A stretch of 64,000 bases of DNA from NCBI GenBank assembly GCA_937904525.1, contig CALEKX010000112.1:13811-77810 (forward strand). Direction: 5' to 3'. The DNA is from an uncultured Phycisphaerales bacterium (lineage in GTDB: Bacteria > Planctomycetota > Phycisphaerae > Tepidisphaerales > Tepidisphaeraceae). The notes under the pieces are model-generated. The model was not told where the DNA came from, made no database searches, and worked only from the letters and a program-made list of their open reading frames with translations. A program made the translations under genes and the position numbers. Within the stretch, counting starts at the first letter, position 1, and each line of letters opens with the position of its first letter. This document shows positions 25,852 to 31,213 of the stretch, one piece after another.

Positions 25852-27186
25852 ATGGCAGATAAGACCTACACCACGACAAACTCCGAATCCGCCTTTCTGA
25901 AGGCCCGGCAGATCATGCCCGGCGGCGTCAGCTCGCCGGTGCGCGCATTCTCAGCCGTCGGGGGGACACCGATTTTCATCAAGAGCGCCGAAGGCTGCCG
26001 TGTCACCGATATCGACGGAAATGAGTACATCGACTACGTCTGCAGCTACGGGCCGTTGATCGGCGGCCATGCCAATGAGCAGGTCGTTGCGGCGTTGTCC
26101 AAGGCCATCGGCCGCGGCACCAGCTACGGCGCCCCCACCGAAGCCGAGACACAGCTTGCCAGCACGATCATCTCCGCCCTGCCGGACATGGAGATGATCC
26201 GATTCGTCAACAGCGGCACCGAGGCGACGATGAGCGCGATCCGCCTGGCGCGGGCCGCCACCGGCCGGGCAAAGATCGTTAAATGCGTCGGCTGCTACCA
26301 TGGCCATGCCGATGCCCTGCTCGTCGAAGCCGGCAGCGGCGCGCTGACCCTGCGCGACAGCACCCAGGCCGCAGCCAAGCCCGGCATCCCCGAATCCGCA
26401 GCCGCCGACACGCTGCTGGTCCACTACAACGACCTCAATGGCGCCAAAGCTGTCTTCGAGCAGCATCCCGGCCAGATCGCCGCTTTTATCGTTGAGCCGG
26501 TGGCGGGCAACATGGGGGTCATCCCCCCGGCTGAGGGGTATCTGCAGGGCCTCCGCGATCTGTGCACCGAGCACGACGCCCTGCTGATCCTGGATGAAGT
26601 GATGACCGGTTTCCGTGTCGCCTGGGGCGGCGCGCAGGTGATGTACAAGGTCAAGCCGGACCTGACCTGCCTGGGGAAGGTCATCGGCGGCGGCCTGCCT
26701 GTGGGTGCGTATGGCGGATCGCGGAAGCTCATGGAGATGATCAGCCCTGCTGGCCCGGTCTATCAGGCGGGGACGCTCAGCGGCAATCCGCTGGCCATGG
26801 CAGCCGGCCTGGCGACGTTGGAGCTGCTGAAGGAAGAGGGCGTCTACGAGAGCCTGGAAGCCAAGTCGGCTGAACTGGCCTCGGGACTGGCAGCCGCGGC
26901 TGAGGACGCGGGCATACCGGTGACGATCAATCGCGTCGGCAGCATGCTGACGGTCTTCTTCACCGCCCAGCCGGGCGCGGCCGTCACCAATTACGCCCAG
27001 GCGACGGCCAGCAATACCGAGACATACGCCGCTTTCTTCCATGCCATGCTCGAAAATGGCGTCATGCTCCCGCCGTCGCAGTACGAGGCCTGGTTCCCCA
27101 GCCTCGCCCACGACGCCGACGCCATCGAGCAGACCCTCAAAGCCGCGAAAAAGGCCTTTGCCGCCATCACGGCTAAATCCTCGTAA
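25852..27186 (+). CDS. hemL: glutamate-1-semialdehyde 2,1-aminomutase
   Basis: [12 protein letters not shown]...[13 protein letters not shown]...[12 protein letters not shown]...[16 protein letters not shown]...[15 protein letters not shown]. Confidence 0.92.
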
Positions 27187-27245
27187 CCTGGGGCACTTGC
27201 GAATCGGCTCGGCAGCGCGTATTGTGGCATGCTGTTAACCGTGTC

Positions 27246-27321
27246 CGGGGCGTGGCGCAGCTTGGTTTAGCGCGCTTGACTGGGGGTCAAGAGGTCGCAG
27301 GTTCAAATCCTGTCGCCCCGA
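27246..27321 (+). tRNA. tRNA-Pro (anticodon GGG)
   Basis: Acceptor CGGGGCG/CGCCCCG + A. Anticodon stem CTTGA/TCAAG with loop CTGGGGG. T-arm GGTTCAAATCC. 76 nt. Confidence 0.9.
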
Positions 27322-27335
27322 TCTGATGAGACTTT

Positions 27336-27372
27336 AAGCCCTTCGGCGAGTACGTCGAAGGGCTTATTGATT
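27336..27372 (+). terminator. hairpin terminator after tRNA-Pro
   Basis: AAGCCCTTCG (27336-27345) pairs perfectly with CGAAGGGCTT (27356-27365) and is followed by ATTGATT. Confidence 0.55.
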
Positions 27373-27502
27373 GTGGGGACAAGACTTGCGCCCTCCAGCG
27401 AAAAGTTCAAAACGACGATTTCGACCAACTTGCGTTTCTCGGTGAAGTCTGCCTCCCATCAAAGAACGATTTCCTCAGCTTTTCGGGTTGCTTGAACCTG
27501 CT

Positions 27503-27530
27503 TTGATCCACAGCACGGCACTGCGATAAT
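27503..27530 (+). promoter_or_regulatory. candidate promoter of the MerR-type gene (TTGATC-N16-GATAAT), leaderless geometry
   Basis: -35 at 27503-27508, -10 at 27525-27530, GTG start at 27538. Confidence 0.4.
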
Positions 27531-27537
27531 GTAGATT

Positions 27538-28020
27538 GTGAAAGACCTGACCATCGGCCAACTCGCTGCCGCCGCTGGCGTTCCAACCTCAACCGTTCGC
27601 TTCTACGAGCGAGAGAAGCTGCTCACGCCCGATGCCCGCACCGGCGCGAACTATCGCGCCTACTCCGCTGCATCGCTGGAGCGTTTGAAGTTCATCCGCG
27701 CCGCCCAGGCGTCGGGGTTCGGGCTGAAGGACATCCGCGAGATGCTGGATCTCACCTACTCCGACGCGCCGCCGTGCGATGAAGTCGCCGCCCTGATCAA
27801 GCGGCGTCTCGTCGAGGTCAAGCAGAAGCTGCGCGAGCTGAAGCGCATCGACCGTGTGCTCAGCGTCGCCCTGCGCAGCTGCTGCCAGGGCGGCCCCGAC
27901 TGGTGCAACGAGATCGAGCGATTGAAGGGCAAACCCGCCTGCGACTGCCCGCCCAAAAAGAATCCGCGCAAAAAGGCCTTGACCTTGCACAAAGGTTCAA
28001 CCTCTACACTCCTGACGTGA
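27538..28020 (+). CDS. MerR-family heavy-metal-responsive regulator (ZntR/CadR/PbrR-like cysteine pattern)
   Basis: N-terminal HTH LTIGQLAAAAGVPTSTVRFYEREKLLTP...YRAY. Cysteines by my count at aa 80, 115, 116 and 123 (PPC...SCCQGGPDWC), plus CDC near the C-terminus. Confidence 0.8.
   Translation: MKDLTIGQLAAAAGVPTSTVRFYEREKLLTPDARTGANYRAYSAASLERLKFIRAAQASGFGLKDIREMLDLTYSDAPPCDEVAALIKRRLVEVKQKLRELKRIDRVLSVALRSCCQGGPDWCNEIERLKGKPACDCPPKKNPRKKALTLHKGSTSTLLT
27979..28010 (+). promoter_or_regulatory. candidate MerR-type promoter/operator: TTGACC, 20-nt spacer containing dyad ACCTT-N5-AAGGT, then TACACT
   Basis: -35 at 27979-27984, dyad at 27982-27996, -10 at 28005-28010. The over-long 19-20 nt spacer is the MerR-family hallmark. 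It lies inside the last codons of the regulator gene, upstream of the Cys-rich ORF. Confidence 0.4.
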
Positions 28021-28083
28021 CGATCGACTGGGCCCGCAACGTGCGTGGCCCGCGATCGCCGGAGTCTCACCGTGGAGGCTGTC

Positions 28084-28173
28084 ATGTGCGCGTCCCAAGA
28101 CGACTGCCCGTGCCCGGTTCCCTGCCCGCCGACCCCGTCCTGCCCGTGCGGCGATGGGTGCTGCGGCAAGTAG
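28084..28173 (+). CDS. unannotated 29-aa Cys/Pro-rich peptide, metallothionein-like
   Basis: Below the ORF-track size cutoff. ATG 28084 has GGAGG (28074-28078) 5 nt upstream. Translation is MCASQDDCPCPVPCPPTPSCPCGDGCCGK (8 Cys of 29), with TAG at 28171-28173. Confidence 0.5.
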   Translation: MCASQDDCPCPVPCPPTPSCPCGDGCCGK

Positions 28174-28180
28174 TTCGCAA

Positions 28181-28218
28181 AGCACCGGCGGTGCTCCGCG
28201 CCGCCGGTGCTGCCCTTT
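28181..28218 (+). terminator. strong hairpin between the Cys-rich ORF and arsC (attenuator or partial terminator)
   Basis: AGCACCGGCGG (28181-28191) pairs perfectly with CCGCCGGTGCT (28201-28211) and is followed by GCCCTTTCGG (weak T-tract). Confidence 0.4.
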
Positions 28219-28234
28219 CGGAAGTGAATCGATC

Positions 28235-28666
28235 ATGAGCAAAGCGAAGGTCCTGTTTCTCTGCACCGGCAACTCCTGCCGAAGCCAGATGGCGGAGGGG
28301 TGGGCCAAAGCGCTGAAGGGCGACACCCTCGACGCCTACTCCGCCGGCGTCGATCCGCACGGCATGAACGCCCGCGCCGTCCAGGCGATGGCCGAAGCCG
28401 GCGTCGATATCACTACGCATCACTCCAAGCACTTGGATGAGCTGAAGCACATAAAATTCGACTACGTCGTCACCGTCTGCGGCCATGCCCACGAGACCTG
28501 CCCCGTCTTCCCCGGCCAAACCAAGGTCGTTCACGTCGGTTTCGATGACCCGCCCAACCTCGCCAAGGACGCCAAGTCCGACGAAGAAGCGATGACCCAC
28601 TACCGGCGCGTCCGCGATGAAATCCGCACGTTCATCCAATCCATCGAACAAAGGCTTGACGCGTGA
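28235..28666 (+). CDS. arsC: arsenate reductase, LMW-PTP/thioredoxin-coupled type
   Basis: MSKAKVLFLCTGNSCRSQMAEGW (CX5R loop) and VVTVCGHAHETCP (resolving Cys pair). I trimmed the track ORF to the ATG at 28235. Confidence 0.88.
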   Translation: MSKAKVLFLCTGNSCRSQMAEGWAKALKGDTLDAYSAGVDPHGMNARAVQAMAEAGVDITTHHSKHLDELKHIKFDYVVTVCGHAHETCPVFPGQTKVVHVGFDDPPNLAKDAKSDEEAMTHYRRVRDEIRTFIQSIEQRLDA

Positions 28667-29333
28667 TCCGCCCCCAACTTTTCGCCGAGTTCCTCGGCAC
28701 CTTCGAACTCGTCTTCGCCCGGTGCGTGCTATGGTCGTCAATGATGTTCACGGCGGCGTCATCACCCACGCCGGCATCTCCATCGTTTGGGGCCTGGTGA
28801 TCATGGCCATGATCTACGCGATGGGCGAGGTCTCCGGTGCTCACTTCAGCCCTGCGGTCACGATCGCCTTCGCCATCAGCGGCTCGTTCGCGCCCAGAAA
28901 GATCGCGCCCTACGTTCTCGCCCAACTCGCCGGCGCAACCGCCGCCGCCGGCGCGTTGCGGCTGCTGTTCGGCATGACGGGAAACGTCGGCATCACCCAG
29001 CCGCACGGCCCGGTGATGCAGGCGTTCTGGATGGAACTGATCCTCACGTTCTTCCTGATGCTGGTGATCCTCTCCGTCGCCCGCGGCAGCAAAGTGCAAG
29101 GTCTGATGGCGGGCATCGCCATCGGCGCGACGGTGGGCCTGGAAGCGATGTTCGCCGGCCCGGTGTGCAATGCGTCGATGAACCCCGCCCGCTCGATCGG
29201 CCCGGCCATCGTCGCTGGGAACCTCAATCACCTGTGGCTGTTTATCGTCGCGCCCCTCCTCGGCGCTGCATTAGCGGTGCCCGCGTGGAAAGCATCCAGC
29301 CAGAGGTGTTCCTCCATTTCGCCATCGAGCTAA
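28663..29333 (+). pseudogene. NIP-type aquaporin (aquaglyceroporin/arsenite channel-like) with an apparent 1-nt deletion after TM1
   Basis: GTG 28663 overlaps the arsC stop (GTGA) and encodes VIRPQLFAEFLGTFELVFARC, a typical MIP TM1. The rest (AMVVNDVHGGVITHAGISIVWGLVIMAMIYAMGEVSGAHFSPAVTIAFA...NPARSIGPAI...) is in the -1 frame. Restoring one G in TGCG-TGCT near 28726 gives ...LVFARCGAMVV.... Confidence 0.6.
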
Positions 29334-29419
29334 TCAGCCCTGATGGCACGATCAGCAAGCCAGAGACGGAGAAACTCCTCCAAGGATTCGTTGATCGATT
29401 CGTGGACGGATGAAGCGAT

Positions 29420-31213
29420 TCAATCGCTAGCGCTGGCATCACTCGCGGTCAACGATGCTCGCGGGAATCGCATGACGAACCGCGTGCCCTGACCGGGCTT
29501 GCTGGAGACTTCAATTGTCCCGCGATGGGCTTGAACGATGTGCTTCACGATCGAAAGGCCAAGGCCGGTGCCGCCCATGTCACGGGAGCGCGAACGGTCC
29601 ACCCGATAGAAGCGTTCGAAGATGCGAGGCAGGTCATCAGCGGGAATCCCGATGCCGTTATCGCTCACCTCGACGGATAGGGCGCTGTTGTCCTGCTTGA
29701 CTGACAAGCGCACCACGCCACCTTCAGGCGTGTACTTGAGGGCGTTGTCGATGAGATTTGCGATAGCGCGTTGCAGGTAATCAGCGTTGCCGTCCACGTG
29801 CGGCAGATGCGGCCAAACCTCGATGTTGAGCTGCTGTTGCTTGCGCTGGGCGGCGGATTGAAATAGCTCCACCGCCTTCCGCGCGACCTGTTCAAGGTCC
29901 ACGTGCTCGGGGCGCGGAACGCCAGGCAGGCTTTCCATGCTTGACAGGTCAAGCAGATCACTGACGAGATTGGTCAGCTGGTCGGCGTGCTTCTCGATAG
30001 TGGCCAGGTATTGCGGCCCACGCTGTGGATCCTGCATGGCCCCTTCGCGCAGGGTCTCAGCGAAGCCCTTGATGGCGGTCAACGGGGTACGCAGCTCATG
30101 AGACACGTTGGCGACGAACTCCGTGCGCAGTTCTTCGTAGCGAATGGCTTCGGTGGCATCGTGCAAAACGATTACCAGGCCTTCGGGGGTTCCCAGCGCG
30201 GGGAACGTTCGGATCGTCACTTGCAACTGCCTGCCAGCGATCGTGCCAATACGTAGACCCTGTCGCTGCGAGCCAAGCAGTACATCGCTTGCCGCCTGCA
30301 AGATTGCCTGGTGTCGTATGACCTCCCATAACGGCCTGCCCACTGCCTCCTCGAGCGATGCGTCGAGAAGGCGGGCCGCGGCTTGATTGGAGAGAACGAC
30401 ACGTTGCTGGGTATTGGTGGCGATGACTCCTTCGTTCATGCCAGACAAGATGGCCAGCAGTTGCGACTTGTCGCGCTGGGACTGGTGAAGCAGATCGACC
30501 AGCGAATCCGCCATCGCGTTCAGCGCTGCTGCCAGGGTTCCCAAGTCCCCGATTTCCGGGCGGACGATCCGCCGGCTGAGGTTCCCATGGCGTATGGCGT
30601 CGGCAAACTGGATCAGTTCCAGCAACGGGCGGGTGGAACGACGAGCAAAATAGTAGCTGATCCCCGCGGCTCCGAGCATGGCCAGAAGTGCGGCGGCGGC
30701 GATGCCAGCGTAGAAGGCCCGCAACTGGCGATCCAAATCCAGTAGATGCAGCGACAATCGCAAGTAATACGGTTTTCCGTCGGCCCCATCGACGCGACGG
30801 GCGAAGTACATCATATCGGTGTGGATCGTTTCGCTCGGGCGTATGCTCTCGCCATGGCCGCGGGTTGTGGCGGTGATAATCTCTGGGCGCAGGCGGTGGT
30901 TCTCCATGGCTGCCGGGTCAGCTTCATTATCGGCGATGACCGTACCCTCTTCCGCGACGATGGTTACGCGCCGGCCAATGGCTTGCCCCGCTTGGTTCAC
31001 ATGGTCGCGAAGCTCGGCCAGACGGTCGGGGTGAAGGTCGCCAGACACACTCAGCGCCAGCAGTTGGGTTTCATCACCCAGAGAACGCCGCGCCTGGCGC
31101 AGGTAGCTGTCGCGAAGCTGTTGCGCGCCGACCAATCCGACAACGCCGATCGCTGCGCAGCTCAGCAGCAGGTAAGGCAGGAACAGGCGGCGAAAGAAGG
31201 GACTGGACCACAC
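29420..31213 (-). CDS. phoR: PhoR-like sensor histidine kinase (TM, HAMP, PAS, HisKA, HATPase)
   Basis: H-box VANVSHELRTPLTAIKGF. N/G boxes IDNALKYTP, DNGIGI, GGTGLGLSIVKH. Context is next to phoB-phoU-pst. Confidence 0.8.
   Translation of the reverse strand: MWSSPFFRRLFLPYLLLSCAAIGVVGLVGAQQLRDSYLRQARRSLGDETQLLALSVSGDLHPDRLAELRDHVNQAGQAIGRRVTIVAEEGTVIADNEADPAAMENHRLRPEIITATTRGHGESIRPSETIHTDMMYFARRVDGADGKPYYLRLSLHLLDLDRQLRAFYAGIAAAALLAMLGAAGISYYFARRSTRPLLELIQFADAIRHGNLSRRIVRPEIGDLGTLAAALNAMADSLVDLLHQSQRDKSQLLAILSGMNEGVIATNTQQRVVLSNQAAARLLDASLEEAVGRPLWEVIRHQAILQAASDVLLGSQRQGLRIGTIAGRQLQVTIRTFPALGTPEGLVIVLHDATEAIRYEELRTEFVANVSHELRTPLTAIKGFAETLREGAMQDPQRGPQYLATIEKHADQLTNLVSDLLDLSSMESLPGVPRPEHVDLEQVARKAVELFQSAAQRKQQQLNIEVWPHLPHVDGNADYLQRAIANLIDNALKYTPEGGVVRLSVKQDNSALSVEVSDNGIGIPADDLPRIFERFYRVDRSRSRDMGGTGLGLSIVKHIVQAHRGTIEVSSKPGQGTRFVMRFPRASLTASDASASD

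Follow-up and report, generated by a model that had tools for sequence, protein, structure and literature searches.

Arsenic resistance is among the best-mapped bacterial detoxification systems, with ArsR as its accepted sensor, and to our knowledge the accepted set of ars genes includes no small Cys-rich binder. What, then, is encoded by the short, Cys-rich open reading frame (ORF) that lies between the gene of a MerR-type regulator and arsC in a 64,000-nucleotide (nt) stretch of contig CALEKX010000112.1, from an uncultured Phycisphaerales bacterium (the whole stretch is here called the window)? We find that this ORF is a real gene under purifying selection, with a conserved position in its operon. 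The balance of the evidence tips slightly toward its being the translated first cistron of a MerR-activated arsenic-resistance operon, whose peptide product is predicted to chelate arsenite. The two features on which the analysis turns are:

28084 to 28173, + strand: small gene of 29 codons plus TAG, encoding MCASQDDCPCPVPCPPTPSCPCGDGCCGK (from sequence reading and in-frame orthologues)
28074 to 28078, + strand: Shine-Dalgarno (SD) sequence GGAGG, 5 nt ahead of the ATG at 28084

The ORF was first noticed in a sequence-only reading of the window, which described a 29-amino-acid (aa) product with 8 Cys, an ATG at 28084 and a GGAGG sequence with a 5-nt spacer. Its coordinates and sequence were confirmed, and the stop codon is the TAG at 28171-28173. 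The cysteines make up 28% of the 29 residues and occupy positions 2, 8, 10, 14, 20, 22, 26 and 27, forming C-x-C and C-C motifs; the window peptide has no aromatic residues at all. A metallothionein was taken operationally as a protein of low mass with about 15-35% Cys in C-x-C, C-C or C-x-x-C motifs and with few or no aromatic residues. The peptide family described below has this composition, its other members carrying 6-11 Cys and at most one Tyr. The label "metallothionein-like" thus stands for composition and fails for homology, as there was no match to SmtA/BmtA, MymT or any Pfam, NCBIfam or PDB family at E values up to 10. A longer, 42-aa form beginning at GTG 28045 was rejected: this codon lies inside a 5' hairpin and lacks an SD sequence, and the only start common to the relatives is the ATG after GAGG.

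Could such a frame be fortuitous, a chance ORF in a GC-rich 5' leader made of TGCCCG-type DNA repeats? GC-rich genomes yield many spurious ORFs, and the present one (64% G+C) has about 80,000 stop-to-stop frames, of which 116 reach 8 Cys within 29 residues. Almost all of the 116, however, are Arg/Trp/Ser-rich off-frame text. Among the 27,254 ATG-started ORFs of 20-45 codons found genome-wide, 21 contain at least 25% Cys, and just one of the 21, the ORF at 28084-28173, has GGAG or GAGG upstream. A repeat or mobile element was rejected as the source of the ORF because the 224-nt stretch from promoter to arsC has no copy elsewhere in the genome. Rfam identified nothing in positions 26500-29500 of the window besides the neighboring tRNA.

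Close orthologues were traced via relatives of ArsC, and contigs encoding ArsC proteins 90-92% identical to that of the window were examined. They carry orthologues of the window-type peptide, MYASKDDCPCPQPCPPCPCDDGCCGK, MYASKDDCPCPQPCPPCPCDGGCCGK and MYATQDESCPCPPTPSCPCGDDCCGK (loci L080, L081/82 and L083/84), which retain the ATG, the promoter, the SD sequence (TGGAGnnCGTCATG) and the TAG stop; a hairpin stem, CACCGGCGG/CCGCCGGTG, is also common to them and the window. Two 9-nt indels at different places distinguish the close orthologues from the window copy, and both are in frame. Nucleotide differences fall at codon positions 1, 2 and 3 in the numbers 2, 3 and 8, Cys codons shift from TGC to TGT, and Pro codons vary among CCG, CCC and CCT. 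The ratio of nonsynonymous to synonymous differences (pN/pS) is 0.18-0.22 for the window-type peptide genes (pS about 0.48, Fisher p about 1e-3), compared with 0.11-0.14 for the adjacent arsC. Purifying selection is seen also at Gly, Asp and Lys positions and at the C-terminal GK. Cys2 of the window copy is replaced by Tyr in the close orthologues, so the conserved set comprises 6-7 cysteines. Ten independent assemblies of the same population (99.8-99.97% identical) do not vary over the 256 nt from promoter to arsC and are therefore uninformative on selection.

Conservation of the frame in relatives, the check that had been proposed with the sequence-only reading, was thus passed, with only in-frame indels and a pN/pS of about 0.2. 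Selection on the frame rejects a chance ORF, as do the conserved frame, start, SD sequence and stop and the fact that no other Cys-rich small ORF in the genome is preceded by an SD sequence. Two ORFs of 137 and 219 aa that overlap the region on the opposite strand were taken as GC-rich artefacts because selection acts on the + frame. The same reading had raised a second possibility, that the ORF encodes the precursor of a ribosomally synthesized and post-translationally modified peptide (RiPP). The product is short and Cys-rich like some RiPP cores, but no maturase, protease or exporter gene is present in any locus; only merR, arsC, MIP or ACR3, arsM or GAPDH genes are found beside the peptide gene, and the RiPP proposal was rejected. 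Of all the explanations considered here, a chance ORF or RiPP precursor is the one to which we give least credence.

If the ORF is a gene, its surroundings indicate the process in which it takes part. The flanking features are:

27538 to 28020, + strand: MerR-family metal(loid)-sensing regulator, GTG start, 160 aa (Pfam MerR_1, 2.7e-19; MerR-DNA-bind; MerR)
27979 to 28010, + strand: MerR-type promoter/operator within the 3' end of the regulator gene (from sequence reading; near-identical across orthologous loci)
28235 to 28666, + strand: arsC, thioredoxin-type arsenate reductase with the low-molecular-weight phosphatase fold (Pfam LMWPc, 5.3e-19; TIGR02691, 7.8e-45)
28663 to 29333, + strand: frameshifted MIP-family channel, a candidate AqpS-like arsenite channel (Pfam MIP, 4e-41, profile positions 41-219 only)
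27246 to 27321: tRNA-Pro (GGG), directly upstream of the merR-peptide-arsC-MIP islet

The placement of the ORF downstream of a MerR-type regulator (27538-28020) and a MerR-style promoter (27979-28010) was confirmed. The promoter consists of a -35 element, TTGACC (27979-84), a 20-nt spacer containing the dyad ACCTT-N5-AAGGT, and a -10 element, TACACT (28005-10). Its consensus over orthologous loci is TTGACCTTGCACTAAGGTTCAACCTCTACACT, and the orthologous promoters follow the pattern TTGACCTT-N-TACACT. A standard promoter scan, which assumes spacers of 16-18 nt, misses 27979-28010, as expected for a spacer of 20 nt. We defined a MerR-regulated unit by a 19-20-nt spacer, a dyad between -35 and -10, and a MerR gene alongside with metal-binding Cys residues; the locus has an over-spaced promoter, a dyad operator and an adjoining MerR gene with Cys residues of the metal-binding type. 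These residues, Cys80, Cys115/116 and Cys123, are kept in 18 of 19 aligned ars-linked regulator orthologues, the exception being the L068 copy, which breaks up past Cys80. The CC pair is missing, in the orthologue alignment, from a less closely related MerR whose target gene is merA. In the MerR-headed arsenic operons compared here, the operator/promoter falls within the 3' end of the regulator gene itself or directly at it.

Immediately downstream of the peptide gene, arsC has its own ribosome-binding site, and the start of the MIP gene overlaps the arsC stop codon (GTGA). The pairing of arsC with MIP is found in the window and in most of the related loci. Orthologous regulators and promoters drive arsC with MIP, arsC with ACR3, arsM with arsC and ACR3, or the ArsJ-associated GAPDH, as identified by NCBIfam scores of 292.7 bits for arsM (cut-off 263), 446 for ACR3 (282.8) and 550 for the ArsJ-associated GAPDH (450). 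The peptide gene itself precedes either arsC and then MIP or ACR3, or the ArsJ-type GAPDH, and across genomes it is co-oriented and contiguous with these genes under one promoter, as is a component of an ars operon. The MerR clade therefore controls arsenic detoxification, and its regulon is an arsenic regulon. Independently of the peptide, the window and loci L002-L003 and L037-L069 reveal a MerR-family protein, not ArsR, at the head of arsenic operons of several compositions in a family of Phycisphaerae. No description of a MerR-type arsenic sensor was found in the full-text literature searched, the coverage of which is incomplete.

The islet is preceded by hemL and the tRNA-Pro gene, and a histidine kinase gene lies beyond it on the other strand. 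A tRNA gene beside an islet is a common landmark of acquired islets.

The presence of arsC, MIP, ACR3, arsM and the ArsJ-type GAPDH makes arsenite or antimonite a likelier ligand of the peptide than Zn, Cd or Cu. The contrary proposal is that of a general soft-metal metallothionein, binding Cd, Zn, Cu(I), Hg or Pb, that happens to be encoded in the ars operon and is induced through a MerR-type sensor of broad specificity. The nearest NCBIfam models of the regulator are indeed ZntR, MerR, CadR/PbrR and CueR, its Cys pattern resembles that of ZntR, and C-x-C and C-C motifs bind all thiophilic metals. The regulator nonetheless scores below the NCBIfam equivalog cut-offs for ZntR, MerR, CadR/PbrR and CueR, that is, for every Zn, Hg, Cd or Cu sensor among them. 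Over about 30 loci, moreover, every gene observed under the promoter is arsenic-related, with none of the P-type ATPase, CDF, RND or mer type. We regard a general soft-metal role as unlikely. The peptide is, on the strength of its genetic context and composition, most likely an inducible ligand of arsenite or antimonite that would act through its thiolates, metallothionein-like and homologous to no known metallothionein.

Is the gene restricted to the window and its close relatives? Wider loci were found with the MerR protein as query, in metagenome and genome collections and then in all 141 genomes of the order; the organism labels on related records are "uncultured Phycisphaerales bacterium", "Tepidisphaeraceae bacterium" and "Humisphaera sp." The first two orthologous loci seen had no such ORF: in L003 the promoter is followed directly by arsC and in L002 by an arsM-like gene. 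They suggested a lineage-specific chance insert in the window, an explanation overturned by metagenome loci that bear the ORF. About 15 further loci have a Cys/Pro ORF of 25-38 codons in the same slot, and the order of elements is identical in metagenome and genome loci: MerR-type promoter, 5' hairpin, GAGG(T/A), the ORF with its ATG 5-7 nt from GAGG(T/A), a second hairpin and then the next gene. GAGG(T/A) is at the same distance in every family member. Examples of distant members are MNTNTCCGPCCPDCPPESPCCPPGCPCGGK, MIAITTCGPCCPDCPPDDCPCCPPGSPCIGK, MVDSSCICCSCCPECPPGCPCGTRK, MLLPILCGPCCPECPPDGDCCCPPCGK, MQAQNDQCPTCECPDGCECPPGTECPCPCCPK, MNASLPVLCCDCGDGCECPPECPPECPPCPCCPPPK and MLSIINATAGGCCDGSDCPPTCPPTCPPNCPPCPCCPS. 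The family peptides contain 23-36% Cys, are rich in Pro, Gly and Asp, have no Arg or Trp and end in a C-terminal Lys, unlike off-frame GC-rich text; the motif C-P-P, with D, E, G or T after it, is almost invariant. In the other subfamilies pN/pS within the subfamily is 0.15-0.33, and 11 of 11 other members outscore their own shuffles against a leave-one-out profile, with 0-3 of 500 shuffles scoring as high. Peptide-bearing loci are scattered across the whole MerR clade, and the tree requires at least 4-5 gains or losses. The peptide gene is thus old, yet it is a dispensable accessory.

Several loci depart from the common arrangement. At L056 (G536) the peptide gene is degenerate: it is frameshifted, and a TGC codon of its relatives is replaced by an in-frame TAG. 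At L060 (G523) the first 20 or so codons are as in L059 and unrelated sequence follows, by deletion or by an assembly join in the CPP repeat. Locus L005 (G016) has, on the reverse strand at about 2040-2234, a 64-codon ORF preceded by AAAGGAG and located past a related MerR-type promoter, the regulator being 43% identical. The product has a signal-peptide-like N-terminus (MSTLLFVAMMLIGFAPAQQ...) and a C-terminal run of DCPPCPPCPPCPTCPPCPLCP, and might be a relative of the Cys-Pro peptides destined for export.

Two stem-loops flank the ORF:

28021 to 28058, + strand: 5'-untranslated stem-loop, CGATCG...GGGCC / GGCCC...CGATCG (RNA folds)
28181 to 28211, + strand: stem-loop past the ORF, a perfect 14 base pairs (bp) with a 3-nt loop and no U-tract (RNA folds)

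The first begins immediately past the predicted transcription start. An equivalent is present in every related locus examined, including L040, L046 and L048, which have no peptide gene; its common form, at the same place in L037-L050 and L080-L084, is GGTTCGGA...GCCGTCGCG...TCCGG. This recurring stem-loop may be a 5' stabilizer or a second regulatory site. The second, reported as a strong hairpin in the sequence-only reading and borne out by the perfect 14-bp stem at 28181-28211, starts 7 nt beyond the ORF stop. A hairpin follows the ORF in nearly every complete peptide-bearing locus examined, and the sequence of its stem differs by clade. In L043 and L044 it is composed of tandem GTAA(C/T)GC heptamers (CGTAACGCGTAATGCGTAATGCGTAAC ... 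GTTACGCGTTACGCATTAC) that form a 22-bp stem unlike that of other loci; structure is kept, sequence is not.

The hairpin brings in a further explanation, also touched on in the sequence-only reading: the ORF might be a regulatory leader (an upstream ORF) whose peptide has no function of its own. The speed of the ribosome at Cys and Pro-Pro codons, set by the supply of Cys-tRNA, by dependence on elongation factor P (EF-P) or by depletion of thiols by arsenite, would determine whether the hairpin forms and so tune the transcription or stability of arsC and the channel gene. The ORF opens the operon, is very short and is always followed by a strong hairpin whose start, 7-12 nt past the stop, a terminating ribosome could reach. 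X-P-P-X motifs are known to stall ribosomes in a manner that depends on EF-P; C-P-P with D, E, G or T next is a nearly invariant element of the peptides, and sequence other than Cys and Pro evolves fast. A transcription-attenuation leader is expected to combine a hairpin and U-tract with anti-terminator pairing. The hairpins have no U-tracts, a terminator scan made no call at 28181-28211, and no conserved alternative pairing was seen in minimum-free-energy or centroid folds. The arsC ribosome-binding site lies outside the hairpin, which leaves it unsequestered in the folds. Where the ORF is missing, arsC or arsM comes straight after the promoter, indicating that the operon needs no leader, and MerR already supplies a response to metal. 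Selection, finally, acts also on the Gly, Asp and Lys positions and the C-terminal GK, and the pN/pS of the gene is near that of arsC. The leader proposal is weakened by the missing U-tracts, the arsC ribosome-binding site, the loci without the ORF and the pattern of selection, while C-P-P and the hairpin still fit it; it is the chief alternative to an arsenite-binding peptide, and we judge it improbable.

The position of the gene immediately upstream of a thioredoxin-coupled ArsC in most loci also allows for a redox partner, a dithiol/disulfide mini-peptide that would support ArsC or act as a sacrificial thiol buffer. The thioredoxin active-site tetrad, C-G-P-C, is present in the peptides of L037, L038, L047 and L055. 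It is missing from the window subfamily, however, and the peptides have no thioredoxin fold and no obvious route by which they could be re-reduced. In one member the gene precedes the ArsJ-type GAPDH and not arsC. A redox role is accordingly very unlikely.

Why has a conserved gene escaped notice? The ORF was confirmed to be unannotated. None of the 10 independent assemblies of the population has a gene call in the gap between merR and arsC, and none of 10 member sequences, the window's included, is present in a collection of 15 billion proteins. A phmmer search against 1.84 billion representatives returned no matches, a profile search of a 5.8-billion collection gave 52 candidates, none of them scoring, and a single-sequence protein search with the 42-aa GTG-extended form found no word-sharing candidate. 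For the 12 members tested, Pfam and NCBIfam contained no family at E values up to 10, and the sole PDB match (E 0.25) was spurious. The profiles of known metallothioneins (PF02069 for SmtA/BmtA, PF00131, PF01439 and others, and MymT) gave no significant match. These empty protein searches reflect a gene that was never called, not a want of relatives; annotation misses it because its size is at or below the length limits of gene callers. A six-frame peptide search of 401 genomes of the phylum was set aside as composition noise, the candidates inspected being off-frame GC-rich text. A profile search of the genomes of the order found just two genomes, of the L049/L050 type, and missed the window's own copy, and one of a sample of genomes from the phylum found nothing. 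For a family of such low complexity, profiles lack sensitivity from one subfamily to another. No report of a Cys-rich peptide gene in ars operons was found in the full-text literature searched, whose coverage is incomplete.

Returning to an arsenite-binding peptide, we infer its translation in vivo, its binding of arsenite, the stoichiometry and the role of the hairpin in the following scheme. The inducer would be bound through Cys80, Cys115/116 and Cys123 of the regulator, and the promoter with its 20-nt spacing would be realigned. The peptide would be produced together with ArsC and the channel. With 6-11 Cys arranged in C-P-C, C-P-P and C-C and with no folded core, it would hold As(III) in thiolate complexes of the AsS3 or AsS2 type, about 2-3 per peptide, and probably Sb(III) likewise. 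As(III) binds three thiolates in ArsR, ArsD and metallothioneins; the chemistry is known from those systems and serves here as a lead. The peptide would buffer arsenite that enters the cell or is made by ArsC, and would shield protein dithiols until the metalloid exits or is methylated. The hairpin past the stop codon probably stabilizes, or partly terminates, a short first-cistron transcript, giving an excess of peptide over enzymes. A stoichiometric binder could be in excess over the catalytic proteins because, as proposed, the hairpin stabilizes or partly ends the transcript.

The state of the channel gene may bear on the importance of such a sink. The MIP gene contains a 1-nt frameshift near 28726, past the first helix. 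Ten of 10 independent assemblies align without gaps at MIP and call only a 200-aa product, so the frameshift is genuine and no sequencing error; in the close relatives L080 and L082 the MIP start is uninterrupted. The window organism has no other MIP gene, and neither ACR3 nor ArsB was found in its genome (a 98% complete assembly). The sink could thus be more important here, or the islet could be decaying. With its sole MIP gene frameshifted in all assemblies and neither ACR3 nor ArsB detected, the window organism may even depend mainly on the peptide to handle the arsenite made by ArsC.

A number of observations weigh against an arsenite-chelating peptide or against a single family of them. 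A passive MIP conducts neutral As(OH)3, and a tight cytosolic binder would compete with its exit. The near-invariant C-P-P also fits a ribosome-stalling leader. We infer the inducer of the regulator, As(III) or Sb(III), from the regulon only. The gene is missing from about half of the orthologous MerR-ars loci and apparently pseudogenised in L056, from which its dispensability follows. When the window peptide was compared with a profile of the others, 863 of 2000 of its own shuffles scored as high; hhalign gave a probability of only 49.5%, and in pairwise comparisons L042 alone stands out (z 3.1). The subfamilies cannot be aligned beyond composition, and part of what we call a family could therefore be convergent.

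What we have is a conserved gene that comes first in an operon of soil Phycisphaerae and whose product has the chemical make-up one would expect for trapping arsenite. The MerR-type promoter in front of it governs five kinds of arsenic genes across loci. A broader proposal, to which we give somewhat less than an even chance, is that these peptides are natural arsenite-specific mini-metallothioneins, with Cys-Pro turns like those of the tetracysteine tag (see below), and that inducible sequestration forms a third arm of bacterial arsenic resistance beside efflux and methylation, driven by MerR where textbooks place ArsR. If correct, the peptides would offer a new minimal natural motif that binds As(III) and Sb(III), for use in biosensing and bioremediation, and the MerR-type activator with its promoter would be a pair usable in arsenic biosensors. 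The locus would also be a concrete case of functional genes of fewer than 40 codons being lost to annotation.

Among known systems, the closest parallels in design are the bacterial metallothioneins SmtA/BmtA (PF02069), as in SmtB-SmtA, and MymT. Each is a small Cys-rich cytosolic binder encoded beside, and controlled by, a metal sensor, induced by its ligand and acting by sequestration, as proposed for the window peptide. There is no sequence relation to them in Pfam, NCBIfam or PDB searches at E values up to 10. As the sequence-only reading had remarked, the window peptide is much shorter; its family measures 25-38 aa against 53-56 aa, or half the size or less. The family is also Pro-rich, without zinc-finger-like fold elements or His ligands, and its arsenic operon is controlled by a MerR-type activator where the known metallothioneins have an ArsR/SmtB or CsoR repressor.

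Accessory proteins of metalloid-resistance operons provide a second comparison. AntC of the Comamonas testosteroni ant operon, an antimonite metallochaperone, is described as a small accessory protein that sequesters Sb(III) and delivers it to a pump (PMC12641948). The likeness, drawn from description only, is that of a small accessory protein in a metalloid-resistance operon; AntC differs in its partner, the P-type ATPase AntA, and in its ArsR-family regulator. ArsD, the arsenic metallochaperone of arsRDABC operons, is an accessory protein that carries Cys pairs and binds As(III) or Sb(III), and like the window peptide it is a Cys-bearing accessory encoded inside an ars operon. It differs in being about 120 aa long, with a thioredoxin-like fold of a kind that the window peptide cannot have, and in handing As(III) to the ATPase ArsA; the ArsD profile has no match to the peptides, and arsA is present in none of the loci.

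The tetracysteine tag, CCPGCC, is a short motif that binds the arsenicals FlAsH, ReAsH and CrAsH tightly via paired thiols (PMC6273389, PMC3665623). Family members carry the similar motifs CCPDCPP, CCPPGC and PCCPECPP. The tag is synthetic and was selected for a biarsenical dye, not as a natural arsenite buffer, so that the resemblance is taken only as a lead.

The operon as a whole most resembles arsR-aqpS-arsC-arsH of Sinorhizobium meliloti, in which ArsC is combined with a MIP channel that serves as the exit for arsenite in place of ArsB or ACR3. We know of no small Cys peptide gene in that operon. ArsC is coupled to a MIP in the window as well, but where S. meliloti employs an ArsR repressor, the window has a MerR-type regulator and a leading peptide gene.

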